Source: Candidatus Bathyarchaeia archaeon
GTDB lineage: Bacteria; Patescibacteriota; Microgenomatia; PFEM01; JAFGMK01
DNA: 64,000 bases
Direction: 5' to 3'
NCBI GenBank assembly: GCA_035529595.1
Contig: DATKWK010000035.1
Location: forward strand, 317,904 to 381,903
Part shown: one piece after another, positions 26,085 through 54,108 of the stretch
Numbering within the stretch: position 1 is the stretch's first letter
Layout of the letters: each line of letters begins with the position of its first letter
Notes under the pieces: generated by a model
Seen by the model: only the letters and a program-made list of their open reading frames with translations
The model's database searches: none
Told to the model about the DNA's origin: nothing
Made by a program: the position numbers and the translations under genes

Positions 26085-26150
26085 GTATAGCAGATCTTAC
26101 AGCAATTATTTTGATTACAAGGGTGAAACACCTCGAGGGTATAAGTGTGT

Positions 26151-26771
26151 TCAATTAACCAAATCCATTAACGAATCAACTGTCATTTTTGCCCCAACTA
26201 AATCTTTTTTAGAGTGGGTGGTCGTTAAACCCAATGAAAATATTTTTGCTCTATTTAAAGCCTTTATTCCGGAAGGCGTATCTTCAATACCAATGGCATC
26301 ATCGGGTTTAAGTTTCATCCTTGAGAGTGCCGCCCGATAGCACTCCGGGTGAGGTTTACTCTGAACATACTGTTCGGCAGTGATTTGAACGCTAAAATAA
26401 TCTTCTAATCGATGATGCTTCAAAACCTCTTTAATAAGCACTTTTTCAAGTCCGGTCGTACAGGCAAGAATTGGTTTAGCGACTAATTTACCGATTTTAT
26501 TAAGCTGAATTCCACCCTGACTCACTTTGAAGATAAAATCATCCGGATTGGAGGTAAACCTGACTTTGACTTCCGAAAGCAGAGAAAGCATTCCACCTTT
26601 GATCGATTTCCCGCTAAAGTATCGCTTATAGGCGCTTTTGGTAAGATGATAACCGTAAGCTTTTAAAACCTTCCTGAACGCCTTAAAGTGAATCTCTTCT
26701 GTATCGATAATTACCCCATCAACATCGAATATTATCCCTTTAATCATAGATATATTTGTTCCCTGTAACAA
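26151..26771 (-). CDS. HAD-superfamily hydrolase (beta-phosphoglucomutase-like subfamily).
   Basis: Motif I IIFDVDGVIIDTE and downstream HAD motifs (SG at about aa 100; GIEDTPSGIKA motif IV region). Confidence 0.75.
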   Translation of the reverse strand: MLQGTNISMIKGIIFDVDGVIIDTEEIHFKAFRKVLKAYGYHLTKSAYKRYFSGKSIKGGMLSLLSEVKVRFTSNPDDFIFKVSQGGIQLNKIGKLVAKPILACTTGLEKVLIKEVLKHHRLEDYFSVQITAEQYVQSKPHPECYRAALSRMKLKPDDAIGIEDTPSGIKALNRAKIFSLGLTTTHSKKDLVGAKMTVDSLMDLVN

Positions 26772-26883
26772 AACAATGATAACTTCAAAGTGCCTCCGAC
26801 AATCTAAGAATATTATAACAGAGACGATAGAAGGAAAAACTTACACAAGCATCAAGGATAAATCATCTTGAATGTCTTATTTT

Positions 26884-28254
26884 TTAATAGTGAACTATCT
26901 GTCTTAATAATCGTTTGTGAAACTCGGTGATACGCTCATCGATCAAAATATCATTACGCCATATTCTTTTGGTCAAAATTATCCCCTCTAAACTCCGGCA
27001 CCGGCTCAGGGCGACATAAGTTTGGCCATGGGCAAAGGGCGACCGGCTGAAATCAACACAAACTTTATCCAGAGACATGCCCTGGCTTTTATGAACGGTA
27101 ATCGCCCAGGCTAGCCGGAGCGGATATTGTTTCAGTTTGCCGATGACTTTTTCCACGAGCCCTCCGGTTTCCTGATTATATTCGTATTCGATGTTGTCCC
27201 ACTCGTTGATATCGACCGCCACAATTTTTTTGGTTTCATTAATTTTGACCTCGATTAAATCCTCAGCCAACTCGTCAACCTTACCCAATGTCCCGTTTAC
27301 CCACCGTCTACCCGGATCGTTTTTGACAAATAAAACTCTCGCCCCTTTCTTAAGCTTTAATTCCAAATCAACCGGCAAATTCCGGTTCTCGGTCGGAAAG
27401 TCGCCCTCGATCGCCGCCTGGTAAACAAACAACGGCTTTTTTATCTTGTCGAGTTTTCTTTGATTAATTGCCTCGGCGGTTTTATTGACCGTGCATAAAA
27501 CAATATGGCTCCCGGGCGGTTGTTTGGCCGTTACTCTTTGATTAATTAAACTGAAAGTATCAGCAGAGACGTCACCCGATCTAACCTGGTTAAGGAATTC
27601 AATAAAATGAAGTTCCTTTTGCCGGAAAATTGTTTTTAGCTCAATCACATTAAAATCGTCCAGTTCAAAAGAATTGGCGCTGAAAAAATAGGGAGAATCA
27701 TAAAGCTGGCTATAGGTCGAGATATCCTGATAGGTAATCACCGGCGGCAGCTGGTATAAATCGCCGACGATAACTACTTGAATACCCCCAAACGGCAATC
27801 TTTCGTCCCGGCCATTAAGTCTTAAAAAACGGTCAACACCGTCAAACAGATCCGCCCTGACCATGGAGATCTCATCAATCACCAGGCAGTCCAAATCGGC
27901 AAAGATTCGCTTTCCGGTCCTCCTGATGGCTTTCGGTTCAATTAACCGGGGAGGAAAACCGAAAAATGAGTGGATTGTTTGCCCGCGGATATTTAAAGCG
28001 GCAATTCCGGTTGGTGCCAGGACGACCACTTTCTTTTTGGTCTGGTTACGGAAGTATTGGATCAGCATCGACTTGCCGGTCCCGGCTTTACCAATGATAA
28101 AGAGATTTTGGTTGGTATTCTCCAAGATCTCCAAGCACTTTTTATGTTCCTCCGTTAAGACATAGGCATTGTCTCTTTTAAACTTATTCAGAATCTTTTT
28201 AAAGATTTTGGGTTGGCTCATGTTTGTGTTTTCTTCATGTTTTAAAGTATACAC
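26884..28254 (-). CDS. PIF1/RecD-family SF1 DNA helicase. The start may instead be the internal ATG at 28221-28223.
   Basis: Walker A IIGKAGTGKSMLI, Walker B LVIDEISMV, and helicase motifs through the C-terminus (VHKSQGMSLD). The 28254 start is a GTG that overlaps a repeat element. Confidence 0.85.
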   Translation of the reverse strand: MYTLKHEENTNMSQPKIFKKILNKFKRDNAYVLTEEHKKCLEILENTNQNLFIIGKAGTGKSMLIQYFRNQTKKKVVVLAPTGIAALNIRGQTIHSFFGFPPRLIEPKAIRRTGKRIFADLDCLVIDEISMVRADLFDGVDRFLRLNGRDERLPFGGIQVVIVGDLYQLPPVITYQDISTYSQLYDSPYFFSANSFELDDFNVIELKTIFRQKELHFIEFLNQVRSGDVSADTFSLINQRVTAKQPPGSHIVLCTVNKTAEAINQRKLDKIKKPLFVYQAAIEGDFPTENRNLPVDLELKLKKGARVLFVKNDPGRRWVNGTLGKVDELAEDLIEVKINETKKIVAVDINEWDNIEYEYNQETGGLVEKVIGKLKQYPLRLAWAITVHKSQGMSLDKVCVDFSRSPFAHGQTYVALSRCRSLEGIILTKRIWRNDILIDERITEFHKRLLRQIVHY

Positions 28255-28369
28255 CAGAATTATCGGCTGTAGGCTGGATACTTTTTTAAATCAGGAGAAG
28301 GAAAAAGTTAAAAAAGGTAATTGAAGAAAATTTTACCGAGGTGCAATGGAAAAAGTACCTTGAAGGTGG
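28239..28369. repeat. Composite palindromic element, family A-pal (core GTTTTAAAGTATACACCAGAATTATCGGCTGTAGGCTGGATAC ... right end GTACCTTGAAGGTGG).
   Basis: Shares the AAGTATACACC..TCGGC core and the ACCTTGAAGGTGG hairpin end with copies at 32014, 33645, 37291, 38390 and 42316. Confidence 0.6.
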
Positions 28370-28581
28370 TTGCCTTATTTCAATCGGCAGCCCAAATTAC
28401 TAATGTTTTATGGTCACTTTCATTTACGAGTTTGATAATTTGTTTATCCATGCTCGTAACTGCTAATTTTGGACTTTCCATCTTATTTTTTGCCGGCTAA
28501 ACGTACTTTCTATAAAAAATTATATCAGTGTTAATAACTTTGAAGTAAAAAAGGGGATCTCGGGCTTAGATGATTTTAGAA

Positions 28582-29121
28582 CTAACTTTTTATCTTGCTA
28601 AGTTTTTCTTTGGCGATCTCAAATACTGGCTGGTGGTGAAATTTTACTTGTATGTTGTCATCAAGTTTAAGACTGACCATCGGAAACATCGGCTGATTCA
28701 TTTTACTTTTATCCCAAGCTAAGTGAGGGTATTTTTGGGTAAAAGATTCAAAGTCTTCGTCAATAATAAATTCCGCATGTTCTAATGCCGACGGGCAAAC
28801 TTGTTCTTCTTTTGGAGCGATTAATTCTAAGGCAGTAATAGAGTAGTTTTTATAAAACAGGGGTTGTTTGAGCATGAAAAGTCCAACCCGCCGGCCGCCA
28901 ACTAAGTTTTCGTCTAAAAAGTCTCCTTCTTTTTGTAACTCTTGTTTTAACTGGTCATAGTCCTCATTCGAGGAAGCCTGGTAACCAAGATGGTCCATTT
29001 CATACTGAGAAATATCGATACCAACCTCGTTTAGTTTTTGAAAGAAAAAGTTTAAGAAAGTAGTCTGGTCAAGTTTAATCATAGTGATGATTTTAACACC
29101 GGCGTGCCAAGGGTAAAACAA
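28582..29121 (-). CDS. Hypothetical protein. Its N-terminal third is duplicated at 33146-33408.
   Basis: 179 aa. Nucleotides 28836-29100 are near-identical to 33146-33400. Confidence 0.5.
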   Translation of the reverse strand: MFYPWHAGVKIITMIKLDQTTFLNFFFQKLNEVGIDISQYEMDHLGYQASSNEDYDQLKQELQKEGDFLDENLVGGRRVGLFMLKQPLFYKNYSITALELIAPKEEQVCPSALEHAEFIIDEDFESFTQKYPHLAWDKSKMNQPMFPMVSLKLDDNIQVKFHHQPVFEIAKEKLSKIKS

Positions 29122-29144
29122 CTGGGATACGTATTTTTATCGTT

Positions 29145-30152
29145 TCAGATTTTGGAAACTTCTTTATTAATCTCATCCTCGGAAAACTGGCTCAGACTAA
29201 GACCGAGAAAATGTTTTATTTGACCCGAATCCCAAGGATTTTTGAAGGGCAGGCTGGCGCCATGTTTTTCAAGCAGGGTGACTCCCAAAACATCGCCTGC
29301 CAAAACATCCTTGGAGGCCAGATAAACTTTGGTTTCGGCAATCTCCCCTTTAGAGGGACCGCCTCTGATAAGCGCCCGGGTGCCGTCAATGACCACCAGG
29401 CTTGGTTTGATCGCCAGAGAAATCTCGGCGATCATTTCCTCCCGATTTTTGGAGGCATGAAAGACCATCCGGTCGATCGGATCGATTAGACCAACCAGAT
29501 TTTTAATCGCTAAAGAATGGCCGGTAATCGAATGGGTATGTAAAACCGGAACCGAAATAATATGGTCAACCTCTTGCAGCCTTTTGGGGATTCTGAATCC
29601 GTTGGGCCAAAACTTCGCTTTTTCCGGAGAAACTCTGATCCATTCTTCATCTTCAAAGCCGACAATTTCATCCGCACCCGCTTCTTGGGCAGCGCTATAC
29701 ATTCCGGTCGTTTTCATTGCCGGAATCGTTTTCCAGTTGGGATTTGACCGATCACCAACAATCACATAAGCACCCCGGGCTTTGGCCAGCCGGACCACTT
29801 CCGCCAAAGCCTCAGGGTGGGTGGTTCCAGGCGCCGGATCATCACTGTTAACATTGGGTTTTATCAGAACCTTTTGGCCGGGTAAAATAAAATTCAGGTT
29901 GCCGGTTTTTTGGATGACTTCGTCAATTCCTCTAGCAATGTTGTCGGAATAAACGATTGAAGCAACTACCTGCTCTTCTTTTTGAGGAGTAACCGTAACT
30001 ACGTTTTTATCGCCGACAATATACTCATTCTCGGGTAAATTGAGGGCTTTACCGCCGAGGATTTTTTGATAAACATAGCTAAATCCGGCAAAAATCACTC
30101 CGGCAAAAAGGACAAAGATAATCTTCATTTTTTTAGAAATTTGGATAGCCAT
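29145..30152 (-). CDS. Exported or membrane-anchored hypothetical protein (DUF362-like?).
   Basis: N-terminal signal/TM segment MKIIFVLFAGVIFAGFSYV. 335 aa. No catalytic motif identified confidently. Confidence 0.45.
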   Translation of the reverse strand: MAIQISKKMKIIFVLFAGVIFAGFSYVYQKILGGKALNLPENEYIVGDKNVVTVTPQKEEQVVASIVYSDNIARGIDEVIQKTGNLNFILPGQKVLIKPNVNSDDPAPGTTHPEALAEVVRLAKARGAYVIVGDRSNPNWKTIPAMKTTGMYSAAQEAGADEIVGFEDEEWIRVSPEKAKFWPNGFRIPKRLQEVDHIISVPVLHTHSITGHSLAIKNLVGLIDPIDRMVFHASKNREEMIAEISLAIKPSLVVIDGTRALIRGGPSKGEIAETKVYLASKDVLAGDVLGVTLLEKHGASLPFKNPWDSGQIKHFLGLSLSQFSEDEINKEVSKI

Positions 30153-30174
30153 AGATCGAATATCAGCTTGTTAA

Positions 30175-30852
30175 TTAAAAGAGGATATCTTCCTGAGCAC
30201 CCCTTGGCTTTTGAGTACAAATCCGGTAATAACACCATTTGCAACTATCAGGATTTTCAGGCGGGGGAGGGCCGTTTAATAACTTTGAAACTTCGGAAAT
30301 GAAGGCATAAAACCGATCCATATCTTCGGCAATTTCAAACCACTGGGGTTTGGCTTTAAAAATCACGTCTTCAGCCGGAAATGAAATTTCTTCGGGATTA
30401 ATCGCAATGATTCCCATTTTACTGACCTTTTTGGGTTCTCCAAAATCAGGATTTTCTAATGCGAACTTGTAGGCGTGAAGTTGGGCAAAGAATCTCTGAA
30501 TCTTGTCTTCCGTCGGGTCAGTAATTTTAAAATCAATTACGGAATAAGTTCCGTCTTCAAGGCGGGAAATAAAATCAAACCTGCCGCCGATATAACAATC
30601 ATTGGCCGGCGGAATGGGTTTTGATTTTAGGAAACCTTCTTTTACCTCGACCTTTCCGGCCGGAAGAAGCGAATTAATTTCTCTTAAATCCATGCCGATA
30701 ATTGCATTTTGCAAAAGTGAATTCATTTTTGTAAAAACACCGGGCATGCCGATTGAAGGCAATTCTTTAATTAAGCCTTTTGCTTTCTGGTAATAGCAAT
30801 GCTTGCAATCCTCGTATAAATACTTGAAATCCGAAGGAGATAATTTGTACAT
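30175..30852 (-). CDS. Cas4/RecB-like PD-(D/E)xK nuclease-family protein with 4 Cys (putative Fe-S); orphan.
   Basis: N-terminal C-x2-C... (DCKHCYY). Central D...VIDFKITD (D/ExK). C-terminal CKWCYYRIC. This is the Cas4/DUF83 arrangement of Cys around a PD-(D/E)xK core. No CRISPR array or cas1/cas2 nearby. Confidence 0.55.
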   Translation of the reverse strand: MYKLSPSDFKYLYEDCKHCYYQKAKGLIKELPSIGMPGVFTKMNSLLQNAIIGMDLREINSLLPAGKVEVKEGFLKSKPIPPANDCYIGGRFDFISRLEDGTYSVIDFKITDPTEDKIQRFFAQLHAYKFALENPDFGEPKKVSKMGIIAINPEEISFPAEDVIFKAKPQWFEIAEDMDRFYAFISEVSKLLNGPPPPENPDSCKWCYYRICTQKPRGAQEDILF

Positions 30853-30863
30853 ATCTTTATTCT

Positions 30864-30915
30864 ACACCATTTAAGGTGTCTCAGATATCATACTGGGAGC
30901 CAAAGTGTATAATAA
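30864..30915. repeat. A-pal family hairpin end (ACACCATTTAAGGTGTCTCAGATA...).
   Basis: Perfect-arm hairpin ACACC-ATTTA-AGGTGT immediately upstream of the 30852 start codon. Confidence 0.5.
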
Positions 30916-31073
30916 AAAAATGAAGAAAAATTGGCTGCTGGGTTTTTTGGGATTTCTTGGTCTTTTGGGTATTCCGGGAATTTTCAGCCGAGATTGGAAA
31001 GATTTGCTTTGGCTCGTTTGGTTTATTTGGTTTGTCTATTTTATTCCACAAAAAAAGGTATAAAACTCCCAAA

Positions 31074-31220
31074 TTACACGTTAAGGTGTCTTAGATAAAA
31101 AAAGCTTTCTGGTAAAAATCCGTTTAACTTCCTGGGGTGTTTACAACCCTGAGCGAATTATAATCCTGAGTGAAATCGAAGGAGTCGAGGTGTCAAGGAT
31201 AAAACACCTTTAAGGTGTAT
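31074..31220. repeat. A-pal family element with a B-pal-like interior (..CCTGAGCG..ATCCTGAGTG..CGAAGGAG..).
   Basis: Left end ACACGTTAAGGTGTCTTAGATA. Right end GAGGTGTCAAGGATAAAACACCTTTAAGGTGTAT. The interior carries CCTGAGCG/ATCCTGAG/GAAGGAG motifs reminiscent of the 14677 and 38484 palindromes. Confidence 0.5.
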
Positions 31221-31237
31221 GTTGTCAATTGCAGAGA

Positions 31238-31954
31238 CTAGTCAAACAATTCGGCCACTTTTAGCTCAGTAAAATTATGGATCGTCTTAACCACTCCGGG
31301 CAGGCTACCTAATACTTTCAGGCGCTCGTCATTTCCAATAACAATGATATTCCTAACACCAGCGGCAAACGCCGACTGGATTCCCGACTTAGCGTCTTCA
31401 ATTACCAGACATTCTACTGGCTTTAAATTGATTATTTTAGCAGCCAACAAATACGGGTCAGGCGCTGGTTTCCCTTTATGCCTGCCATCGTTATAAAGTA
31501 TTTTCTGCTTGTTAAACCACTGATCAAGACGCAATTTTTTAAAAGAAAAACTAAAAATTCCTACTGCTGAAGAGGTGGCAATCGTCCGGGGAATATTTCT
31601 GTCTTGAACTTGGTTTAAGAATTCTTCCAATCCGATATTGAGATGAAACAACGGACTGGTTCTACATAAATGTTCTGTTATTTGATCTTTCTTTTTGGCT
31701 AACTTTTCGATTTCTTCAGTACTCATTTTGTTACCGGACAACCATTTGATTGTCTCCTTAGAAGGTACTCCTCGGATTCGATGAACCATTTCTCCATCAG
31801 TAACCATTTGTCCTCTTAACTCCCGGGAAATTTGACTCCACGCTTCTTTTTGAATCGGATAATCATCAACCAGCACTCCATTGAAATCAAAAATTATTCC
31901 GATTGGTCTTGGCGTATTTAAGCTTTGTTGATTAATAATCTTTTTCTGGGCCAT
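31238..31954 (-). CDS. HAD-superfamily hydrolase (phosphatase/beta-PGM-like).
   Basis: Motif I IGIIFDFNGVLVDD. Downstream Ser/Thr and Lys motifs. C-terminal IEDAKSGIQSA (motif IV). Confidence 0.75.
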   Translation of the reverse strand: MAQKKIINQQSLNTPRPIGIIFDFNGVLVDDYPIQKEAWSQISRELRGQMVTDGEMVHRIRGVPSKETIKWLSGNKMSTEEIEKLAKKKDQITEHLCRTSPLFHLNIGLEEFLNQVQDRNIPRTIATSSAVGIFSFSFKKLRLDQWFNKQKILYNDGRHKGKPAPDPYLLAAKIINLKPVECLVIEDAKSGIQSAFAAGVRNIIVIGNDERLKVLGSLPGVVKTIHNFTELKVAELFD

Positions 31955-32013
31955 CTTTGAGAAAATAATTTATTGACCACACCTCAAATTATTTCTTCTT
32001 TTTATCTGTTTTT

Positions 32014-32108
32014 CTTATTAATTACACCTTCAAGATGCCTTAGATATGATTCTTCTTGTTTTAAGTATACACCCAAATTATCGGTTGCAAGTTTTAGGGA
32101 AGACACCT
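32014..32108. repeat. A-pal family element, complete copy.
   Basis: ACACCTTCAAGATGCCTTAGATATGATTCTTCTTGTTTTAAGTATACACCCAAATTATCGGTTGCAAGTTTTAGGGAAGACACCTTGAGGGTGTAG. Confidence 0.6.
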
Positions 32109-32178
32109 TGAGGGTGTAGTAGGCTAGCTCCGTAAGAAATGCCCTGCGAGACAGACAACGTTTAGCCTTTTTTAAAAG

Positions 32179-32508
32179 TTATTGAGCCAGCTTTGAAAGA
32201 AACATATTCACAAGCGACAAAACGATAGCTGCAATCAAGGCCGTTCTAAATCCTGCAACACTAAAACCGGGCACAATTTTGCTCATTATCATTAAGAGGA
32301 GTGCGTTAATAACAAAAGTGAACAACCCTAATGTTAAAATATTTATCGGTAGCGTCAATAGTATTACTACGGGTTTAACTAACAAAGTTAACAATCCCCA
32401 TACGACTGAAATAACAAGCAAGGCTTGCCAACCACTAACTATAAAACCTGGCACTAAGTATGCGGTCACGTAGAATGCAAGGGCACTGACCAATAATTGT
32501 ATAAACAT
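32179..32508 (-). CDS. Phage-holin family 4-like small membrane protein (YvlD/PF04020-like).
   Basis: 109 aa with 4 TM segments and the pattern ..YLVPGF.V.GW..LL.....GLL...VKP...LLTLP.N..TLGLFTFVINALLL.....VPGF.V.GF..ALIAAIVLSLVN. Confidence 0.55.
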   Translation of the reverse strand: MFIQLLVSALAFYVTAYLVPGFIVSGWQALLVISVVWGLLTLLVKPVVILLTLPINILTLGLFTFVINALLLMIMSKIVPGFSVAGFRTALIAAIVLSLVNMFLSKLAQ

Positions 32509-32811
32509 ATTATTATTCTAAACCACGAACCCTGTACTGTAAATCACTTACTGAATCATCAATTCTACGCCGATAAACCCAGTCTTCCCCTAGTTAACAA
32601 TAGGTAGTATGCTCGCTTAATCCCTGACCTTTATCAAATGCAAAAGGGGTGATTGTTCCAGTCGGTTTATTAATAATTTCTTTGCTGACAACGGAACCCT
32701 CTTGATAATTTATTGTTTGATTAATATTCTTAGAATTGGTCATAAAATAAGATTTTATCACAGAAAAATATCAGCCTAATCAATTAGCTGTATAATTAAT
32801 TAGGTAAAATT

Positions 32812-33030
32812 ATGAAAATATCGGTAATAGTCCATCCGAATTCAAAAAATCCAAGAATAGAAAAAGACTTAATGAGCGTATTACATATTTATGTAAAGGC
32901 ACCGCCATTGGAAGGAAAGGCTAACAAGGCAGTCATTGAAGCATTGGCAATATTTTTTAAAACCAAAAAGGGAAAGATAATCTTAAAACGGGGAGAGAAA
33001 TCGAGAAATAAAGTATTTGAAATAGGCTGA
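32812..33030 (+). CDS. DUF167/YggU-family protein.
   Basis: 72 aa. VKAPPLEGKANKAVIEALAIFFKTKKGKIILKRGEKSRNKVFEI matches the DUF167 core (P.eGkAN.alI..La..). Confidence 0.7.
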   Translation: MKISVIVHPNSKNPRIEKDLMSVLHIYVKAPPLEGKANKAVIEALAIFFKTKKGKIILKRGEKSRNKVFEIG

Positions 33031-33145
33031 AATTTACCGATATTGATTGCTCCCAGGTGGGGCTCAGACTTCAAAAAAATTAGGTTTATAAAATAAAACA
33101 ATGTCAATCCTTATGGGATTAGATTTTTAGATAGTTGTTGAAGCT

Positions 33146-33408
33146 TAATTCCAAGGCAGTAATAGAGTAGTTTTTATAAAACAGGGGTTGTTTGAGTCTG
33201 AAAAGTCTCCTTCTTTTTGTAACTCTTGTTTTAACTGGTCATAGTCCTCATTCGAGGAAGCCTGGTAACCAAGATGATCCATTTCATACTGAGAAATATC
33301 GATACCAACCTCGTTTAGTTTTTGGAAGAAAGAGTTTAAGAAAGTAGTCTGGTCAAGTTTAATCATAGTGATGATTTTAACACCGGCGGCGCTCCAAAGG
33401 AAAGACAC
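33146..33408 (-). pseudogene. Truncated duplicate of the 5' third of gene 28582-29121.
   Basis: About 250 nt near-identical to 28836-29100, with a 45-nt internal deletion. The ORF ends after 87 aa with unrelated residues. Confidence 0.6.
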
Positions 33409-33644
33409 CTTGAAGGTGGTTAACTACCTATTAAAAATAAGGGTAATCTCTACCAAATACCTTTTACTTCAAGATAGATAATTGAAACAATCATCATCAC
33501 AATCATAAAAAGAAAAATATATATAAATCTGGCCTTTTTATTGCGCGGTAGTTTTAAGTAACCCTCTTTAGTAATCAAAGGCGAAAAAACCTTGTGCAAA
33601 ATTTTAATTAAAAAATTTTCCATGCCGGCAATCCTTTTATGATT

Positions 33645-33722
33645 ACACTTTTAAAGTGTCTCAGATTAGCCACTTCTTGTTAAGTATACACCAAAGTTCT
33701 CGGCCGTAAGCTTGATGTTTTC
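33645..33722. repeat. A-pal family element (left hairpin plus core).
   Basis: ACACTTTTAAAGTGTCTCAGATTAGCCACTTCTTGTTAAGTATACACCAAAGTTCTCGGCCGTAAGCTTGATGTTTTC. A right-end-type hairpin (GACACCTTGAAGGTGG) lies at 33398-33424. Confidence 0.55.
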
Positions 33723-37190: not shown

Positions 37191-37290
37191 GATTTATATT
37201 ATATTTTAAAAATAATTTTTGAGCAATATTGAATATTTTTTATCTGGCTTTATCAGTAATTTTCTTCATATTCAATAAATCTATAGAATT

Positions 37291-37384
37291 ACACCTTCAG
37301 GGTGTCTCAGATATGGCACTTCTTGTTAAGTATACACCAAAATTACCGGCCGTAAGCTTGAGGGAAGACACTTTGAAGGTACAG
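37291..37384. repeat. A-pal family element, complete copy.
   Basis: ACACCTTCAGGGTGTCTCAGATATGGCACTTCTTGTTAAGTATACACCAAAATTACCGGCCGTAAGCTTGAGGGAAGACACTTTGAAGGT. Confidence 0.6.
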
Positions 37385-37400
37385 TTAGCCGGTTTTATTT

Positions 37401-38366: not shown

Positions 38367-38389
38367 GCTCTGGTAATTTATATATTTGG

Positions 38390-38663
38390 TACACCTTCAA
38401 AATGTCTCAGATTAGACACTTCTTTTATAAGTATACACCAAAATTCTCGGCCGAAAGCTTGATATTTTCACAAATTTTGCATCCTTGTCATCCTAATCCC
38501 GACTTTAGGTCGTGGAGAAGGATCCAGCGAAGCCAAGTCTGACTTGGCGAAGCGCTTACGCTAGATTCCTTGGAATGACAATAGAGTCTTGAAATAGGTT
38601 CTGATTTTTTTAAATCAGTAGAAAAAGTACCAAGGTGTCAAGGGAAAGACACCTTGAAGGTGT
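38390..38663. repeat. A-pal family element carrying a nested B-pal palindrome.
   Basis: Left ACACCTTCAAAATGTCTCAGATTAGACACTTCTTTTATAAGTATACACCAAAATTCTCGGCCGAAAGCTTGA. Right ...AAAAAGTACCAAGGTGTCAAGGGAAAGACACCTTGAAGGTGTT. Interior 38484-38580 is the second B-pal palindrome. Confidence 0.6.
38484..38580. repeat. Imperfect palindromic element, family B-pal, copy 2 (TTGTCATCC...GGAATGACAA), nested in an A-pal element.
   Basis: Terminal arms ttgtcatcc / ggaatgacaa are exact reverse complements. The interior gaaggatccagcgaagccaagtc-tgac-ttggcgaagcgcttacgctagattcc is palindromic. Its right arm matches copy 1 (14677-14768) in reverse orientation. Confidence 0.6.
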
Positions 38664-38747
38664 TAAATGGGGCGCTAAATGACAGTTTGATAATTAAATC
38701 TCGAAAGCTAAGGACTTCGAATAGTTACCTATGATATTATAAATATT

Positions 38748-42315: not shown

Positions 42316-42403
42316 TTAAATCAAAAACAGTGAAAAGGCAAAAAGGGCAATTGGAGAAAAAAAATTCACCGAGGTTCAATGGGAAAAGTACCTTGAAGGT
42401 GGT
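42316..42403. repeat. A-pal family right-end element (TTTAAATCAA..GAAAAGGCAA..TTCACCGAGGTTCAATGGGAAAAGTACCTTGAAGGTGG).
   Basis: About 75% identical over about 80 nt to 28290-28369. Directly abuts the stop of the 42413 gene. Confidence 0.55.
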
Positions 42404-42412
42404 TACCTTTAT

Positions 42413-45259: not shown

Positions 45260-45355
45260 TGTTTTTCTCCACCACTTTTATTTCGTCATCTGTAAGTCCG
45301 CAGAGCTTATAAACCATTTGATCAATTTATTTTTCGTATTCGCGGACTTTCGTCC

Positions 45356-47209
45356 TTATATTTCCGGTAAATGACTTTTAAGATATTTTTCTGTATCTTT
45401 ATCAATAAAATAAACATATACTCCCTTATGGGCCCGAGAAAGAAGTACGCGATAAACGTTTTTTAAGTGATTCGTGAGATTTGGATTATTACGTTTTACT
45501 TGCGTATCATGAGAATTTTCCGGAATCGCTCGCCACTTACTTTCAACCGGATCAAAAACCAAATCATTTCCAAAAATAACTGCAATATAGTCAAATTCAA
45601 ACCCTTGAGCTGTATAAACAGTTCCCACCTGTTCCATCCCCGAATCATCGGTAGCCCATTTCCAAAACTGGTCTTTTTTTTCCCATGGCATTTCGAAGTT
45701 TCCTATTTTTACGTCGTTAACTAAAGAATTATCTGGGATTGGTTTACTCCACGACCAACAAAATCCTGCAGTAATCCTCGCGGAATTAGGTTTCTCATGA
45801 TTTCTCTTCCGAATTTCTTCCATCATCTCTTGCGGGCTTTTAAAAATTTTAAATTCCATTTTAGGATCATATTCCGAAAATTCACTATCACCAATTCTTA
45901 AAACAAAATCTAACCATTGAAGGTAAGCATCGGAACCTGAACATCTAAATTGTGTTTTAAGCTCAAATTCAGAGATATCAGATTTTTTAATTCCCAAACG
46001 TTGCACTGCTTTTTTTATCATCTCGACGCTTCCTATTTCGTTCGGTCTCACGATCTGATTTTCGTCAATAAAGAAAATGCTTAATTTCGCTACATTTAAC
46101 AATTCGTCTATTTGGGGCAAATCTGTTCTTTGAACTTTCGGTGTATATCTATCTATGCTTGATTCTCTTATACGATGTGCCTCGTCGCAAATAAGCACAT
46201 CAAAAGAACCTGACTTCGTTGCAATAAAGCTGTTGAAAAATTTGAACAGGTTTTTTGCCCGAACACCAACTATATTTCTTAATGTATTTGTAAACGCGGA
46301 CGATCCCGTGGCATGTACGACCTTTCTCCCTTGCCTCAAAAGCTCCCCCATAACTTCTAATGCTATTACAGACTTCCCTGTGCCGGGACCACCCTTTACT
46401 ATCACTACTGATTTTTGCTTTGTTTTTGCGAACTGCTTAACTTTGTGCCTTATTGCATTGTAGGCAACAATTTGTTCATCAATTAAATTAAAAATTTGCC
46501 GTTTATTTATCATCTCCGATGTATGATCAAGTAGTTTTCTAGACGGTTCGATTGGGCTTCTTGCAAATCGTTCGTAAATCAATTTACCCTTACCACCCTG
46601 AAGGCGCTTTTTTAGATATCTTCCCAATTCAATAGCGTCTTCTTTTGCAAACAATGGAAAGGTTTTGATTAATTTAGAAAATTCCGAAGAAAAAAGTATG
46701 GCATCTTTATTCTTTGAATAATTATGTAGATATACAGATGCGCTTAATTCTGGCGAGTTCTTTTCTTGAAAAATCCTAAGAAAATCCTTTAGGCCGAAAT
46801 AGTATCCTTGCACTTGTAGCACGGGGTGTGGTTGTTCCCTCTTAAATTGCCCATAATCGACGACTACATTACCTTCACTTTCGGCGTCTTGCACGTGTTG
46901 ATTTGACCATTGTTTGAGTTCCATCATTACAACATTTTCTTCTCCATCCACGTCATGCCCAAAAAGCAAAACATCAATTCTTCGCGACGAAAAAGGAAGT
47001 TCGTATTCGACAATTATATGGTTGTCTTTAAGGCCGGCGTAATGAAAACTATTATTTAGGATTGCAAGCGAAATTGCCCATGATCTATATTCACGATCAG
47101 CTGGATCCTTTTTGTAGTAAGCTCGATATTTTTCGGCCGCACGATCCGCAATGCAGTTTTGCATTACATCTTCGTTAAATCGCTCGATTGTGCCTTCATA
47201 AAGAATCAT
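45356..47209 (-). CDS. DUF2075-like protein: N-terminal PD-(D/E)xK-type nuclease fused to an SF1/RecD-like P-loop helicase-like ATPase.
   Basis: N-terminal IDVLLFGHD...VVMMELKQW (D...ExK). Walker A VIVKGGPGTGKSVIALEVM. Walker B VLICDEAHRI. C-terminal TVYTAQGFEFDYIAVIFGNDLVFD, characteristic of DUF2075/UvrD_C_2-type domains. Confidence 0.7.
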   Translation of the reverse strand: MILYEGTIERFNEDVMQNCIADRAAEKYRAYYKKDPADREYRSWAISLAILNNSFHYAGLKDNHIIVEYELPFSSRRIDVLLFGHDVDGEENVVMMELKQWSNQHVQDAESEGNVVVDYGQFKREQPHPVLQVQGYYFGLKDFLRIFQEKNSPELSASVYLHNYSKNKDAILFSSEFSKLIKTFPLFAKEDAIELGRYLKKRLQGGKGKLIYERFARSPIEPSRKLLDHTSEMINKRQIFNLIDEQIVAYNAIRHKVKQFAKTKQKSVVIVKGGPGTGKSVIALEVMGELLRQGRKVVHATGSSAFTNTLRNIVGVRAKNLFKFFNSFIATKSGSFDVLICDEAHRIRESSIDRYTPKVQRTDLPQIDELLNVAKLSIFFIDENQIVRPNEIGSVEMIKKAVQRLGIKKSDISEFELKTQFRCSGSDAYLQWLDFVLRIGDSEFSEYDPKMEFKIFKSPQEMMEEIRKRNHEKPNSARITAGFCWSWSKPIPDNSLVNDVKIGNFEMPWEKKDQFWKWATDDSGMEQVGTVYTAQGFEFDYIAVIFGNDLVFDPVESKWRAIPENSHDTQVKRNNPNLTNHLKNVYRVLLSRAHKGVYVYFIDKDTEKYLKSHLPEI

Positions 47210-48016: not shown

Positions 48017-48022
48017 TATTAC

Positions 48023-48370: not shown

Positions 48371-48443
48371 AATACTTTGTCAGAAAATCAACATCAATCC
48401 TAAAAGCCTTGACGATCCCTGCCTATTGGCAGAAGAAGGGGAT

Positions 48444-48484
48444 AGTTTAAATTTGGCCACTTTAAGCTGATTCTACCACTTTTT
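48444..48484. repeat. 41-bp direct repeat, copy 1 (AGTTTAAATTTGGCCACTTTAAGCTGATTCTACCACTTT).
   Basis: About 38/41 identical to 49441-49479. The two copies bracket the PIG-L gene. Confidence 0.6.
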
Positions 48485-48554: not shown

Positions 48555-49277
48555 TCACAGAAAATATTCCCTGGAAAGCATCTTGTTCTTGAGAAAGAAT
48601 AAAAAAGACTGCCAGTGAAGCATGTCAAACCTGAACTGCGACTGATGGGACTTTAACGCCAGCAGTTTTTTTATACTGGCGGCAAGGCCCAGTTTCATAA
48701 TAAATTGAGGCTTACTAGGCTTGACTACCTTTTCGGCCAACTTTATGGCTTGTCGAGGTAAAATATAATTAATAGAAACTGTCGCGTATAGAGTTTTGAC
48801 TGGCGGGTCTGAAACCTCAGAGACAAACTTGCTCAGAGAGATATGGTCAGGGTGTCCGTAAATTCCGTTTGGCTCAAGGGTAATTATGTGCGAGGGTCGG
48901 TATAGGGATATTTCTTTTCTTAAACATGACAGTATTTCTTCTCCCCGATTCTTCAAATTTCCATCGCCGAAATCAAATATTTTCAGATCTTTTATCCCCA
49001 ATATCTTCAAAGCATTTTTCAGCTCGATCGATCTTACTTTACCAAGATCCGCAGACTTATCCAGTCTATAGCGAAGAGAACTTCTTTCACCCCGGCTGAA
49101 AGTCAAAACCCGGGTGGGTATTTTACCTAAAAATAGCTTATATAAAGTACCGCCAATAAAAACTGCTTCGTCATCCGGGTGAGGCATACAAACCAAAATC
49201 CGGCTATTTAAAGAAATACCTAATGAGTAAACATCCTTGACAATCTGCATAAAAAAATTTGTCACAGACACCTTCAA
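48555..49277 (-). CDS. PIG-L/LmbE-family N-acetylglucosaminyl deacetylase.
   Basis: N-terminal VCMPHPDDEAVFIGGT (HPDDE motif). Downstream HPDH pair (GIYGHPDHISL). Confidence 0.75.
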   Translation of the reverse strand: MKVSVTNFFMQIVKDVYSLGISLNSRILVCMPHPDDEAVFIGGTLYKLFLGKIPTRVLTFSRGERSSLRYRLDKSADLGKVRSIELKNALKILGIKDLKIFDFGDGNLKNRGEEILSCLRKEISLYRPSHIITLEPNGIYGHPDHISLSKFVSEVSDPPVKTLYATVSINYILPRQAIKLAEKVVKPSKPQFIMKLGLAASIKKLLALKSHQSQFRFDMLHWQSFLFFLKNKMLSREYFL

Positions 49278-49282
49278 AGTGC
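49266..49282. repeat. A-pal family hairpin (GACACCTTCAAAGTGCC) overlapping the PIG-L start.
   Basis: Same hairpin class as the other A-pal ends. Lies at the 5' end of the gene. Confidence 0.45.
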
Positions 49283-49440
49283 CTTAGGTTTCCTGACGTT
49301 TTTTAAAGTTTTAAACTAGGACTAACAATTTTTAGAATATCTTTCTTTTAATTTTCATAAGCAAAAAGATTTTTGGTAAAAATCACAAGAACCAGGGAAA
49401 GCAGGAAAACCAAGCCGGTTTTTTTGACAGAAAGAGAGAG

Positions 49441-49479
49441 AGTTTTAATTTGGCCACTTTAAGCTGATTTTACCACTTT
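49441..49479. repeat. 41-bp direct repeat, copy 2 (AGTTTTAATTTGGCCACTTTAAGCTGATTTTACCACTTT).
   Basis: See copy 1 at 48444-48484. Confidence 0.6.
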
Positions 49480-49551
49480 GTGGCTTAAAGGGGTATTAAT
49501 TAGGTTTAAAAAATCTTTTTTCTCTCGGACGCTAGGTCTCCTACGCTAAAA

Positions 49552-49863: not shown

Positions 49864-49989
49864 ACAGCTATTTTACTTCAAATAATAAAATATTTTTTAT
49901 AGTGCATCTTGAGGGCGCATTACATTAATTAGGTTGAGAAAATCCTTTTCGTGTCACTTACTGGGACAATTCTAGAACCAATTTCTTCA

Positions 49990-50445: not shown

Positions 50446-50569
50446 AAGGTAATTATATCAAAGGTTTGAAAAAATGAATGAGCAGGGTACCTAGATGGAA
50501 TGATTTTAGAATCTGCTCTACTTGACGGACAACGCTCAAATCTATTTTAATTTTTTTACGATACCACCT

Positions 50570-51301: not shown

Positions 51302-51387
51302 GGCTATATTCTACCAGAAAAGATATTACCCAACAGTCTCTTAATTTTTTGGTGGGGAAAAAACTAAAAGAAATTCTTTTGCTAACT

Positions 51388-52290
51388 TTAACGAAACATT
51401 TCAATCGCTAGGACTGTATCTTTCACATCAAGGTAGGCTATCATACAACCACATCGGCTACAGTCAATTGTTACTTTCTTTTGATCGGGGCTTCCCATCT
51501 GGCAAGGATAAAGCTTTTTACCCTCGAAATTTAAATTTAATCGCGTTTTAAATTTAGCACTGCATTTTTTGATCCATTTGCCGGCCTGTCTTGAACTCAT
51601 CTTTTGCAAAATTCTTTCGCTATTCCAGGGCATAAACTTAGGTCTTTTTAATCTAAGAGTTTTTAATTTGTCAATCACTCTGTCTCTCTCGCTGAAGGTG
51701 AGGCACAAAGTGTCATCTTCACCTTTTTGGGGAGTATAAAAGTCATAGATTACACCCGCTACTTCAGTTTCAGACCATTCCTTATAAAAGTCTTCAATGT
51801 TATCTTTGTTTTCTTTGCTAATAGTCATAAGTATGTATATTTTTAAACCCTTGGCGGCCCCATCCAGGATGTTTTTTTTGATTAAATCATACTGTTTGCC
51901 GTTGAAACCATTGCCTCTGATTTTTTCGTGGTATTTTTTGGTTCCGTCAACTGAAACACCAAAGGTGACATCTTTCCAATCCGGCAAAGGAATGGTTCCG
52001 TTTGTAATTATCATGTTTACAGGAAAGTATTTTTTTCCAATTTTAATTAGATCTTGTCTAAGTAATGGCTCGCCTCCCACATAGGCCATTGATATGGTCC
52101 CTTGTTTAATCAAACTTCTGAACACTTTTATCCATTTGTCTTCTGGCAAGTCTTGGCTTTTAGAGTTTTTCCTGAAGCAATGTAGGCAATTCAGGTTGCA
52201 CTTATTAGTTACTTCCATTCCCACGGATTTTATTTTTCCAAAAGACAAGACAGATAACTTAATAATCTTTAAAAAACTTTTTACTCTCAT
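51388..52290 (-). CDS. Radical SAM enzyme with a C-terminal Cys-rich (SPASM/twitch-like) region.
   Basis: EVTNKCNLNCLHCF (CxxxCxxC). GGEPLL glycine-rich SAM motif. C-terminal C..C..CSRCGC cysteines. Confidence 0.7.
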   Translation of the reverse strand: MRVKSFLKIIKLSVLSFGKIKSVGMEVTNKCNLNCLHCFRKNSKSQDLPEDKWIKVFRSLIKQGTISMAYVGGEPLLRQDLIKIGKKYFPVNMIITNGTIPLPDWKDVTFGVSVDGTKKYHEKIRGNGFNGKQYDLIKKNILDGAAKGLKIYILMTISKENKDNIEDFYKEWSETEVAGVIYDFYTPQKGEDDTLCLTFSERDRVIDKLKTLRLKRPKFMPWNSERILQKMSSRQAGKWIKKCSAKFKTRLNLNFEGKKLYPCQMGSPDQKKVTIDCSRCGCMIAYLDVKDTVLAIEMFR

Positions 52291-52416
52291 ATTTCTAAAA
52301 TATACTAAATTAACTTCAATTGTAATATTAAACTGACTTTTCCAGTGCCGTTTTATTTCTTACCTAGCCTTCGATACTAAATATACCTCAAACCAATCTG
52401 AAGGAAACTCTGATTA

Positions 52417-52452
52417 CCAAGGTGTCAAGGGTGAGACACCTTAAAGGTGTAT
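52417..52452. repeat. A-pal family right-end hairpin (CCAAGGTGTCAAGGGTGAGACACCTTAAAGGTGTAT).
   Basis: Near-identical in form to 38627-38663 (CCAAGGTGTCAAGGGAAAGACACCTTGAAGGTGTT). Confidence 0.55.
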
Positions 52453-52454
52453 TT

Positions 52455-53288
52455 TTAACCAACCCTAAAGCTTTCTAGAAAGTAGTACCACTGAGCAGTT
52501 TCTTGAACATAGGCATCAATCTGCCGCCAATCGGGGCCGATTCCTTTACCTTGGCTTTGATCAACTATCATTCCCATTTGGCTAAATCTTCTTGGATCAG
52601 GAGCAAAAACAGCCTGGCTGATCCCCAATTCATTTTGGTTCCAAGGTTGGGCCGGTAAAATTTTTATCATTAAACAATCAGCAACAAAATCTCTCATCGT
52701 TGACGGCCGGTCATCAATAAAAACCTGCAGATTAAATCGAGTTATCATGCCGAGTTTAAAATCTAAGTCGGTTACCCCCGGAGAGCGAATAATCAGTCTG
52801 TTTTCGTCGACTACCCAATCCAGGCCGAGATTCTTAAACCAGTCTTGAGTTGCCTGGCCAATTCCATATTGGTCGACTCTACCGCTGATAAAGAAAACTT
52901 CATATCCCTGATTTCGCCAGTCGCAAATTACTTCCAGAGCACCCGGGTAAACGACCGCGTTTTGAAAAACATCAGTTCTCTCATAGTAAAGCTGCTTGAG
53001 AAATTCTTTGGCTCCCGGAGTATCGGCAACTAAAGGATGTTTGGCCAGATCCCAATCAAGAGTATCCTCAACCCGAAGATGAACCTCCTCTCCCCTTATT
53101 TGGCTTAGATATTGACTCATAACTGCAAGTGCGTAAGGATGACTATCGGCAAATGTCCCATCCAGGTCAACACCGATTCCTAACCTTCTGATATCCCACT
53201 CCGGAGTCGACCGGCCAGTTCTTTCTATAGCCATAAAAATGAAGTGGTATATCTTCCACTTTTTCCCACTGTAAGACGATTTTACCAC
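52455..53288 (-). CDS. HAD-like 5'(3')-deoxyribonucleotidase-family protein (putative nucleotidase).
   Basis: IGVDLDGTFADSHPY resembles the NT5C-family motif I (DMDGVLAD). 277 aa. Weak overall. Confidence 0.5.
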   Translation of the reverse strand: MVKSSYSGKKWKIYHFIFMAIERTGRSTPEWDIRRLGIGVDLDGTFADSHPYALAVMSQYLSQIRGEEVHLRVEDTLDWDLAKHPLVADTPGAKEFLKQLYYERTDVFQNAVVYPGALEVICDWRNQGYEVFFISGRVDQYGIGQATQDWFKNLGLDWVVDENRLIIRSPGVTDLDFKLGMITRFNLQVFIDDRPSTMRDFVADCLMIKILPAQPWNQNELGISQAVFAPDPRRFSQMGMIVDQSQGKGIGPDWRQIDAYVQETAQWYYFLESFRVG

Positions 53289-54108
53289 TTCCTGTAAAAA
53301 GTACCTCTTGAAGCTATTGAGTAACTCCGCATCATTCTCTGTAAAGGTTTTTGAAACGATAATGAGACTCTTCTTCTATTTCTCTTGCCCGAGAAGAAAA
53401 ACTCTCCCCTCTTTTTTCAAGTAAACCATCTACTTCCTGCTGCGTATATAGCTTTTCCGGCCAAACAGTCACGTTCCCCTTTTGATCATTTAATTTAATA
53501 TCCATATTTATTTTCACCCCTTTTAATTCTCTGAACGAAACCGAAAACTTTATATCATTCGACTAATAAAGAGCGCAAGCAGCGCGCTACCACAAATTAA
53601 GAAGCTTGTTGTTCACGAGAAAGGACTTGCACCAGTTTAACAATTCTCCAAGCCAAAAAAGCGTACACAATAATTGCTACCGTCATTATTATTTCATCCC
53701 CTTTTGTTTTTTTAAATTATCACAGATTTTTTCTTTATTCTCTGCGTTTGTTAATTTGATAACGTGAGTTTAAGGATCAAGCCACTTTAATATCAGGCTT
53801 CTTAATTATTGTTTCTTTGGGTAAATACTTCATTAAAGCCCTTTCTACTAGAAAGGTTAAGCTGCGTCCCTCAACCACAGCTTGTGCTCTGGCGTGTCTT
53901 AATAGGTCCGGATTAAGAAAAAGAGTTACCCGTTGTTTATTGTTATTTATTGTCATAGTTCACATGGTACCACTAGTTAAAGTTATTATCAAGTATCAGT
54001 TTGGAGCTAGCCCACGAGGTCTATAAAAAGATTAATTGGAAAACCGAGTCCATATTTATCGAAACCCAAGAGTTGGATTGTAAAGAATGGGGGAGAAATC
54101 AAGCTTTC

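Follow-up and report, generated by a model that had tools for sequence, protein, structure and literature searches.

Palindromic repeats between genes of a patescibacterial contig and their likeness to the flanks of Y1 transposase genes

Gene content of the window and anatomy of the repeats

The window analysed here is a stretch of 64,000 nucleotides from contig DATKWK010000035.1 (positions 317,904 to 381,903 of the forward strand, assembly GCA_035529595.1). It contains a family of composite palindromic repeats, termed A-pal, that lie between genes and are likely to belong to the class of repeats that forms the inverted ends of tyrosine transposase genes in Patescibacteria. Copies were sought in the window and in the 9 kb on each side of it, 82.6 kb of the source contig in all. 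Positions are those of the window.

The gene set of the window is bacterial (D-Ala-D-Ala ligase, amidase_3, YkuD, LonA, FtsX, signal peptidase I), and the named homologues of its DUF362 protein, at 61–72% identity, are from Patescibacteria-group bacteria. For these reasons the host is treated as a bacterium of the Candidate Phyla Radiation (CPR)/Patescibacteria. The name Candidatus Bathyarchaeia archaeon, under which a metagenome-assembled genome (MAG) with identical proteins is recorded, is probably an error of binning or labelling. The GC content of the window is ca. 40%, and the GC skew of the plus strand is negative in essentially every 2-kb bin. The minus strand, which carries most of the genes, is thus also the G-rich strand.

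The genes found between the repeats are varied. Their Pfam labels include HAD hydrolases, a PIF1-like helicase, YecM, DUF362, PD-(D/E)XK, a holin-like protein, an S8 subtilase with FG-GAP and dockerin domains, an SMC/AAA_21-like ATPase, a DUF2075/Schlafen-type helicase, RadC, MazG, PIG-L and two radical SAM proteins. The first-pass annotation, made from the sequence without database searches, had called these genes heterogeneous and defence- or mobile-flavoured; the Pfam labels bear out the heterogeneity, but defence-system models match only in part. Its statement that no integrase is encoded in the window agrees with the Pfam analysis of 30 open reading frames (ORFs) between 22 and 56 kb and with the precomputed Pfam labels of the flanks, neither of which includes one; the 30 ORFs include no transposase either. 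No tRNA genes were found in the window, and the whole window had no Rfam match at the gathering threshold.

The repeats were detected in two ways, by mechanical repeat finding and with hidden Markov models (HMMs) built from their modules L, C and R. With these, every coordinate range listed in the first-pass annotation proved to hold a real copy or half-copy. Strong copies are found in 11 intergenic gaps between 28.2 and 52.5 kb, and there are two weak remnants (26118–26142 and 25036–25060). A further copy is located 4.2 kb past the edge of the window (68243–68210, minus strand), 9 nt upstream of the ATG of an acetyltransferase gene. There are thus 12 loci in 82.6 kb, 11 of them within 28 kb. 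The palindrome ACACCTT-N(0-3)-AAGGTGT occurs 13 times with at least 12 of 14 matches and 9 times with at least 13 of 14, while the means in 40 dinucleotide-preserving shuffles were 0.98 and 0.05, respectively. In three copies it is a perfect 7-1-7 palindrome, ACACCTT-N-AAGGTGT.

The repeats point the same way at all 12 loci (binomial p = 5e-4). Of the 25 intergenic gaps of at least 40 nt that lie between 25 and 53.3 kb, 11 carry a repeat, compared to 0 of 25 elsewhere in the window (Fisher p = 2.4e-4). This is 44% of the gaps, or 52% if the two weak remnants are counted, and the earlier description of a repeat in nearly every gap was therefore an overstatement. The densest stretch is 28.2–38.7 kb, where 9 of 14 gaps are occupied. 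The copies are 60–97% alike in sequence. All module copies are extragenic with respect to the called ORFs, with the sole exception of the R copy at 33377, which runs into the GTG start that was called mechanically for a truncated YecM fragment.

Module L has the sequence ATTACACCTTCAGGGTGTCTCAGATATGGCACTTCTTGTT on the plus strand; the core, C, has the sequence AAGTATACACCAAAATTCTCGGCCGTAAGCTTGA and module R the sequence TACCAAGGTGTCAAGGGAAAGACACCTTGAAGGTGT. The module HMMs place L at 30859, 31072, 32019, 33639, 37285 and 38386 and, more weakly, at 49266; C at 28241, 32059, 33677, 37323 and 38425; and R at 28328, 31178, 32091, 33377, 37356, 38622, 42361 and 52411. On the minus strand, R is equivalent to the 5’-flank repeat of the transposase genes described below – the hairpin NCACCT-NNN-AGGTGN, an 8-nt spacer (TTTCCCTT) and a box (GACACCTTGGTA) – and L is equivalent to their 3’-flank repeat, with a degenerate AAGGTGTC box, the spacer ATATCTGA and then the same hairpin. 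Compact copies of ca. 100 nt read R, core, L on this strand, and two of them are intact (32019–32117 and 37285–37385). The core is ca. 45 nt long, including 34 nt that are 80–97% identical among copies. It had been described as built from three palindromic hexamers; GTATAC is present in all five cores, but CGGCCG and AAGCTT are each present in only three.

On the minus strand the order of features at the repeats is stop codon, R, core, L and next start codon. Six of the eight R modules start 1–25 nt past the preceding stop codon, which in one instance is that of a 23-codon ORF fragment. The distance from the end of L to the next start codon is 6–19 nt at four genes and 64 or 94 nt at two more; one L points towards the stop of an opposite-strand ORF.

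Related repeats at the ends of Y1 transposase genes

The R-module pattern AAGGTGTC N6-10 GACACCT N1-3 AAGGTG matched 12 genome stretches and 25 metagenome stretches, with no match in viral contigs. About 18 of the matching contigs have low GC content, including a Gottesmanbacteria MAG and a Patescibacteria MAG. Conserved in these contigs is TACC(A/C)AAGGTGTC, followed by (C/G)TATCTGG and then by GACACCTCTAAGGTG. The motif is often present in multiple copies, with six motif clusters in the 2.7-kb contig L041. Matches in high-GC sequences (Dyella, Rhodanobacter, Actinomycetes) were rejected as coding or chance matches – they had no module-HMM matches, and the same context recurred across several contigs.

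Between two of the motif clusters of L041 is a 220-aa ORF with both motifs of Y1 transposases, HUH (PNHFHFL) and tyrosine (RYIHLNPV). Counting L041 and the homologues that tblastn found with this ORF, an ORF of 220–230 aa is directly beside the motif in nine of the contigs matched by the R pattern. The flanks are inverted and on both sides of the transposase ORF in L016, L017, L023/L036, L029, L035 and L041, and on the 3’ side only in L046 and L047. In complete units the 5’ side of the gene has the form [NCACCT-NNN-AGGTGN] - 8-9 nt - GACACCTT(G/T)GGTA. The 3’ side, TACC(A/C)AAGGTGTC - 8 nt - [NCACCT-NNN-AGGTGN], is an inverted copy of it. These inverted flanks are ca. 40 nt long and partly self-complementary. 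Extra copies of the repeat, away from the transposase gene, are found in L018, L020, L024, L032, L035 and L041, as well as in the window.

The ORF passes the Pfam model Y1_Tnp with 35 bits against a cut-off of 23. Its sole NCBIfam match is NF047646, the REP-associated tyrosine transposase (RAYT; REP, repetitive extragenic palindrome), with E = 5e-13; the score of 49 bits is under the equivalog cut-off of 80. Among all PDB chains, the sole match is 4ER8, the TnpA-REP of E. coli in complex with a REP (E = 5.6e-4), and the TnpA structures of IS608 and ISDra2 gave no match at E <= 0.01. By these scores the transposase is a distant relative of RAYT rather than an equivalog. H89-F90-H91 and R148-Y149-I150-H151, the latter with the tyrosine of RYIHLNP, are invariant in the transposase alignment. 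At least 7,993 homologues at 90% clustering were retrieved with a profile; they are named only “transposase” and are from Gottesmanbacteria, Levybacteria and other Patescibacteria.

Four distinct gene contexts were retrieved via protein homology alone, and in three of them the gene has the motif on either side: L050 (from the complete Levyibacteriota genome CP066685.1), L051 and L056. In L051 (9251–12764) and L056 (2700–8570; also L057–L059), contigs from separate samples, the repeat-flanked transposase gene is located between the gene for DNA polymerase III delta’ (holB) and gyrB. A fixed gene position is a trait reported for vertically inherited RAYTs (PMC5581495). L051 has three Y1_Tnp genes in 20 kb, only one of them with this type of repeat, and L056 has two side by side. 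In L050, a repeat copy at 1012–1049 falls inside a called EPSP synthase ORF (447–1604), either an intragenic repeat or a problem of gene calling.

Two HMMs, a 5’-flank model and a 3’-flank model, were trained solely on the foreign flanks and run on the window and its 9-kb flanks. The 5’-flank model found R sites on the minus strand at 52454–52414 (E = 1.5e-9), 38663–38623 (2.9e-8) and 31219–31188 (4.4e-5). The 3’-flank model found L sites on the same strand at 37319–37287 (2.2e-5) and 38419–38390 (3.9e-4), as well as the external copy at 68243–68210 (3.7e-10), with weaker matches at 33673, 32049, 30887 and 31097. Every match with E < 0.5 was at a site of the first-pass annotation or at the external copy; one marginal match was found elsewhere (59151–59163, E = 0.67). 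The spacers agree as well. The R spacer TTTCCCTT resembles that of the 5’ flank in L023 (ATTACCCTT), and the L spacer ATATCTGA resembles those of the 3’ flanks (CTATCTGA or CTATCTGG). With matching spacers and the same-strand order of 5’ flank, core and 3’ flank, the compact elements mirror a transposase unit in which ca. 45 nt replace the gene.

The hairpin NCACCT-NNN-AGGTGN covaries among 34 copies, from the window and 15 other loci, that were aligned without gaps. At the column pair 24/38, 16 copies have A-U and 10 have C-G; double-change cells number 17 versus 10.1 in shuffles, and none of 500 shuffles reached the observed number. The stem has 5–7 bp, and the spacers are YTATCTGR, AATAG or AAGGG. 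The AAGGTGTC box does not covary with the middle segment, and its outer positions are unpaired in 13–17 of the 34 copies. The element is therefore one hairpin plus, at a distance of 8 nt, a box conserved in sequence, outside which TACC is conserved too. By analogy, it can be likened to Y1 transposase substrates with their hairpin and guide or cleavage sequences. On inspection, diverged arms in the window (for example at 32024, 38391 and 49268) keep their pairing through G-T/G-U pairs on the minus strand only. This asymmetry fits a single-strand DNA mechanism and an mRNA-level hairpin equally well – it cannot separate the two, because the mRNA sense strand and the G-rich strand are one and the same here, the minus strand.

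Interpretation of the repeats and comparison with known systems

A-pal is likely to be a family of extragenic palindromes of the REP type, with the related bacterial interspersed mosaic elements (BIMEs) and REP doublets forming hairpins (REPINs). This is the repeat class that forms the inverted ends of Y1/HUH transposase genes in Patescibacteria, genes like those for RAYTs or for terminal inverted repeat-associated tyrosine transposases (TIRYTs). The compact copies of the window read as non-autonomous, transposase-less doublets similar to REPINs and BIMEs, and the solo L, solo R, L+C and C+R copies as decayed or rearranged pieces of them. Of the three possibilities first raised for A-pal, none of them taken as established, colonisation of the region by miniature inverted-repeat transposable elements (MITEs) came closest. 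On the present view the modules are the two terminal inverted repeats of a Y1 transposase unit of the RAYT/TIRYT type, arranged like a REPIN or BIME in the compact copies. Extragenic, co-oriented, modular copies and doublets with paired ends are known from REP/BIME/REPIN and TIRtron families (PMC2817692, PMC3733652, PMC3337134).

By analogy with E. coli REP/RAYT and with IS200/IS605, the hairpin would be recognised on single-stranded DNA by a cognate Y1 transposase whose gene is, or once was, elsewhere in the genome. This enzyme would copy doublets into intergenic DNA in a strand-specific manner, which would result in the uniform orientation of the copies. If this is correct, the source genome should have one or more Y1 transposase genes flanked by R- and L-type repeats of the CACCTTGAAGGTG variant.

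The repeats share several traits with the “REPtrons” of Gammaproteobacteria, REP/BIME sequences and their RAYT (Nunvar 2010, PMC2817692). Both are short extragenic palindromes, often clustered or mosaic, with a covarying hairpin and with copies mostly downstream of genes and between convergent genes. Both have a transposase gene between two inverted repeat copies, seen here in the related contigs, and a Y1/HUH enzyme, whose sole NCBIfam and PDB matches here are REP-associated (structure 4ER8, PMC3479197). The doublet and mosaic arrangement is also shared – the two compact doublets, and composites at 28.2, 31.1 and 38.4 kb. In classical REPs the palindrome adjoins a conserved GT(A/G)G head (PMC2817692, PMC3733652), whereas the 34 aligned copies have no GTAG, GTGG or CGTC tag and instead have TACC(A/C) before the AAGGTGTC box. 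This box, 8 nt from the hairpin, is a second conserved element of the patescibacterial family. The foreign proteins are ca. 60 aa longer than E. coli RayT, and the patescibacterial host and the local clustering in the window are further differences. Classical REPs are dispersed over the chromosome, typically in more than 100 copies.

TIRtrons, or TIRYT genes, have long terminal inverted repeats unrelated to GTAG REPs and form moderately abundant families (Di Nocera 2013, PMC3733652). They are like the foreign units in that the gene has inverted, partly self-complementary (“double palindromic”) flanks of ca. 40 nt, and in that the repeats are also found away from the gene as singles, dimers and groups. 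The described families share GGGGWSAS or are mutually unrelated; none has the A-pal sequence, and none is reported from Patescibacteria in that paper (PMC3733652). REPINs and BIME-type doublets, found in Proteobacteria, consist of 5’ and 3’ repeats without the gene (PMC3116915, PMC3337134, PMC2817692). The compact copies are similarly two inverted palindromic units around a conserved spacer, forming one long hairpin. They differ in that the two units are not identical (8-nt spacers TTTCCCTT versus ATATCTGA, and one unit without the outer box), and there are only two intact doublets and no apparent population of identical “master” copies.

IS200/IS605 elements and their gene-less derivatives, the palindrome-associated transposable elements (PATEs), use Y1/HUH chemistry, with subterminal hairpins that are recognised on single-stranded DNA and strand-specific insertion coupled to replication. 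Insertion of this kind would account for a uniform orientation on a strand of constant GC skew. The ends of IS200/IS605 elements are not inverted repeats of each other, however, whereas flanks of the A-pal type are. Classical MITEs of the DDE type combine terminal inverted repeats with a target-site duplication. The compact copies have terminal inverted repeats of 15–18 nt. No consistent duplication could be read at the two intact copies; Y1 elements make none. In organisation, and with no likeness in sequence expected, A-pal is also similar to the BOX elements of pneumococci and the Correia elements of neisseriae, with modular L/C/R combinations, an intergenic position and possible effects as terminators or in untranslated regions (UTRs). 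BOX and Correia elements are modular intergenic repeats that have no dedicated transposase gene flanked by them.

Several observations weigh against a REP-type family mobilised by a Y1 transposase. No Y1 transposase gene or remnant was found in the window or within 9 kb of it (tblastn and six-frame HMM search), and none from the source contig is among the 120 listed of the at least 7,993 homologues. The clustered distribution, with 11 of 25 gaps occupied in 28 kb and 0 of 25 elsewhere, is unlike that of the dispersed classical REPs. The GT(A/G)G head of these REPs is missing, the conserved flank being TACC/GGTA. A degenerate pattern fitting all five cores had no match in the genome, metagenome and viral collections, which do not include the source contig, and the core therefore looks lineage-specific. 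Many copies are partial and the copies are 60–92% alike, so that recent activity is not evident. One of the four contexts retrieved by protein homology (L052–L055) does not have this type of flank, and only the other three are independent of the window-derived DNA pattern that was used to retrieve most flanks. Two proteins, P0156 and P0204, were considered as the source genome’s own transposase and dropped, both being from other samples.

REP/RAYT biology is known almost entirely from Proteobacteria (PMC2817692, PMC5581495), and a full-text literature search found no paper tying RAYTs or REPs to Patescibacteria beyond incidental mention. A-pal is a known class of repeat met in a lineage for which that search found no earlier description. 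It offers REPIN research a distant system in streamlined genomes of ca. 1 Mb. Recognition of such repeats also helps in annotating small genomes, where they break assemblies, mimic regulatory motifs and mark gene boundaries.

A broader version of this explanation is a tentative and rather unlikely one: that the RAYT-REP partnership is vertically inherited across Patescibacteria, and that the repeats of this mostly leaderless organism have been co-opted as gene-boundary punctuation, R as a terminator and L as a leader hairpin with the Shine-Dalgarno (SD)-like AAGGTG. The repeat consensus – TACC-AAGGTGTC, 8 nt, CACCT-NNN-AGGTG – is near-constant between lineages whose transposases are only 40–56% identical, and the transposase gene is often found at the holB–gyrB position.

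Apart from this broader version, secondary effects of the repeats on gene expression are likely. The full R at 38622, on the minus strand, was the top terminator-like match in a scan of 26–43 kb, with a 10-bp stem and a T run. With a T-rich tail and a position 1–25 nt after stop codons, R may serve to terminate transcripts or to stabilise their 3’ ends. Through L, a hairpin containing the SD-like AAGGTG comes to lie 6–19 nt before several start codons. In the core, the only promoter-like sequence is the –10-like hexamer TATACT, with no –35 box and no proper TGn extension, and a sigma-70 consensus scan raised no flag.

It is quite improbable that these effects are the whole explanation, with the repeats being purely RNA-level boundary elements (R an intrinsic terminator, L a 5’-UTR switch) made alike by selection rather than transposition. 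The terminator-like score of R, its position after stops in six of eight cases, the position of L before four starts and 9 nt before the ATG at the external copy, and the G-U pairing kept by the arms on the sense strand all fit such a role. In the proposed switch, the anti-SD-like ACACCT would pair either with the upstream AAGGTGTC or with the downstream SD-like AAGGTG. The first box and the middle segment do not covary, which disfavours a two-state switch, and an SD-sequestering switch was ruled against on this ground. Other points that do not fit are the distances of 64–94 nt to the ATG in two copies and the L that faces an opposite-strand stop, the lack of a T run in several R copies, the apparently leaderless state of most genes here and the lack of any Rfam match at E <= 1 in 28–39 kb. 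The position of the same motif around transposase genes would be left unexplained. A role at the RNA level is compatible with a REP-type origin as a secondary, co-opted one.

Scars of a multi-copy IS200-like element, in which full-length insertions later lost their gene, would be a very unlikely alternative to doublets copied in trans by a single domesticated RAYT. Some loci do have several Y1 genes (the three in L051 and the adjacent two in L056), many homologues are found on contigs of 1–3 kb, as is the case for multi-copy genes, and the window copies are partial and diverged. However, the same 34-nt core is present at the same junctions in five copies, as expected for a copied doublet and unlikely for independent deletions. 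No stretch between an L and an R retains any transposase coding sequence, and the fixed holB–gyrB position (L051, L056–L059) resembles that of vertically inherited RAYTs (PMC5581495).

There is very little to favour operator sites, in which a 15-bp ACACCTT-N-AAGGTGT bound by a dimeric transcription factor would co-regulate the region, in line with the global regulator suggested in the first-pass annotation. The perfect palindrome in three copies, the position upstream of several start codons and the symmetric covariation would suit a dimer site. The conserved unit is much larger, extending 100–180 nt around the palindrome and including the 34-nt core, and copies are downstream as often as upstream – half of them, the R copies, come directly after stops or between convergent genes. 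G-T/G-U pairing on one strand only is not expected of a duplex site, and the motif forms the inverted ends of transposase genes in other genomes.

The least credible alternative, barely worth retaining, is a cluster of attC sites lacking an integron-integrase (CALIN), with attC-type sites recombined by an IntI-type integrase encoded elsewhere and the bracketed genes as cassettes: the co-oriented, foldable repeats at the boundaries of heterogeneous genes, with paired ends in the compact copies, are like such an array, but no RYYYAAC...GTTRRRY pair spaced 55–145 nt apart exists on either strand in 25–53.5 kb, no integrase is present in the window or within 9 kb, and in at least ten other contigs the same motifs flank a Y1 transposase and not an integrase. 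A GTTAAGT in the core had been taken to fit the attC R’ consensus GTTRRRY. It does fit in two of the five cores, but it is missing from the other three and is central rather than terminal. A-pal has no R’’/R’ boxes. The proposed folding check for attC-like extrahelical bases found near-perfect palindromic stems without bulges, and the sequence itself is conserved, not the structure alone. No more than 11 of 25 gaps hold a site. Where other assemblies of the organism (L002, L004–L006) overlap the window they are 100% identical to it, with no presence/absence variation at the level of cassettes. Relatives of the DUF362 gene at 71–75% identity (L008–L012) are in unrelated neighbourhoods without repeat copies, and a search for homologues of the 321-aa gene, which lies between the two best copies, returned that gene alone. 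A tempting false lead, an integrase-less integron or cassette system in a candidate-phyla bacterium, thus gives way to an ordinary and testable mechanism.

Individual copies and neighbouring features

All of the copies described here are on the minus strand. The weak R-like remnant at 26118–26142 (11/14 matches, 64% similarity, module HMM E = 0.018) has a score that chance also reaches. The first strong copy, 28241–28375, has a core (28241–28283), a 44-nt spacer and a degenerate GTACC variant of R (28328–28375) but no L. The ATG of the PIF1-like gene (28221) is 19 nt past this core, and the R is 87% identical over 60 nt to the copy at 42.3 kb. Adjacent to it is a 23-codon ORF (28383–28454, minus strand; MDKQIIKLVNESDHKTLVIWAAD) resembling the N-terminus of an Imm5-like immunity protein in L011 (LIKNSKHKTLAIWAIDCA). 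Its stop is 4 nt before the R repeat, and it looks like a gene truncated at the repeat.

A solo L at 30859–30901 (module HMM E = 6e-8) is 6 nt upstream of the ATG of the PD-(D/E)XK gene (30852). The copy at 31072–31222 has L (31072–31111) and R (31178–31222; 5’-flank model E = 4.4e-5) separated by 66 nt, with no core, and its R starts 15 nt past the stop of a HAD gene. Between these two loci is a small hydrophobic membrane ORF on the plus strand (30905–31063; 52 aa from a GTG start, with an ATG at 30920), opposite to its neighbours. Bracketed by the L modules at 30859 and 31072, it is the sole gene that appears to be enclosed by two like-oriented copies of the same module.

The compact L+C+R doublet at 32019–32117, ca. 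100 nt long, is between the holin-like and HAD genes, and its terminal 15–18 nt pair with each other. These ends form an outer stem, with DNA fold energies of –8.3 and –11.3 kcal/mol. Both compact doublets fold into one long hairpin. The other doublet, 37285–37385 (also ca. 100 nt; 3’-flank model, minus strand, E = 2.2e-5), has its R 15 nt past the stop of the 321-aa gene and its L 94 nt before the ATG of a 386-aa gene.

A partial R at 33377–33424 (module HMM E = 1.5e-10) marks the junction where the 5’ part of YecM has been duplicated. The duplicates, 28821–29104 and 33145–33388, are 97% identical, and a 40-bp deletion in the second leaves an ORF fragment of 87 aa. Both are preceded by an R-type repeat, better preserved at the fragment. 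Short-read contigs of the host break at these duplicates (L002 spans 29075–33182). At 33639–33721 there is an L+C copy without R, its L ending 15 nt upstream of the ATG (33623) of a 57-aa ORF.

The long copy at 38386–38666, in a divergent intergenic region, has L+C (38386–38468), an insert of ca. 150 nt (38470–38620) and a full R (38622–38666). The insert is unique and highly structured, folding very stably (ca. –45 kcal/mol as RNA on either strand) around a long imperfect hairpin, TTGTCATTCC...GGATGACAA. Rfam gave nothing for it at E <= 1, and none of the loci retrieved has a second copy. Short GTCATCC/GGATGAC motifs also adjoin repeats in L024 and L047.

An extended R at 42316–42408 (module HMM E = 3e-11) is in a convergent gap, 4 nt past the stop of the 948-aa SMC/AAA_21-like gene. 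A degenerate L-type palindrome at 49266–49291 (12/14 matches, E = 0.003) is 13 nt upstream of the ATG of PIG-L (49252). The full R at 52411–52453, which starts 1 nt past the stop of a HAD-like gene, is the best match of the 5’-flank model (E = 1.5e-9).

The gene for the 948-aa ATPase adjoins one for the 617-aa DUF2075/Schlafen-type helicase (42413–47209, minus strand). This pair has partial matches to the defence models Ppl, AriA, Nhi, AbiO and PDC-S41. No defined system fits, and the two may be a defence pair. Just to the left of the repeat-rich region, precomputed Pfam labels mark a PhdYeFM antitoxin/ParE toxin pair (23470–23959, minus strand).

In many genes of the window an extended –10-like box (TGnTAnAAT, for example TGGTAAAAT, TGGTAGAAT or TGCTATACT) ends 6–12 nt before the start codon. 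These genes have no SD sequence, and a minority of the window’s genes have one of the GGAGG type. Boxes so close to starts without an SD suggest that leaderless mRNAs are widespread in the host. A second small repeat family is found at 48441–48482, 49438–49479 and 53250–53291, its first two copies 93% identical. On the minus strand it carries AAGTGGTAAAATC, an extended –10-like TGGTAAAAT, upstream of the MazG, PIG-L and HAD-like genes, and it may be a shared promoter.

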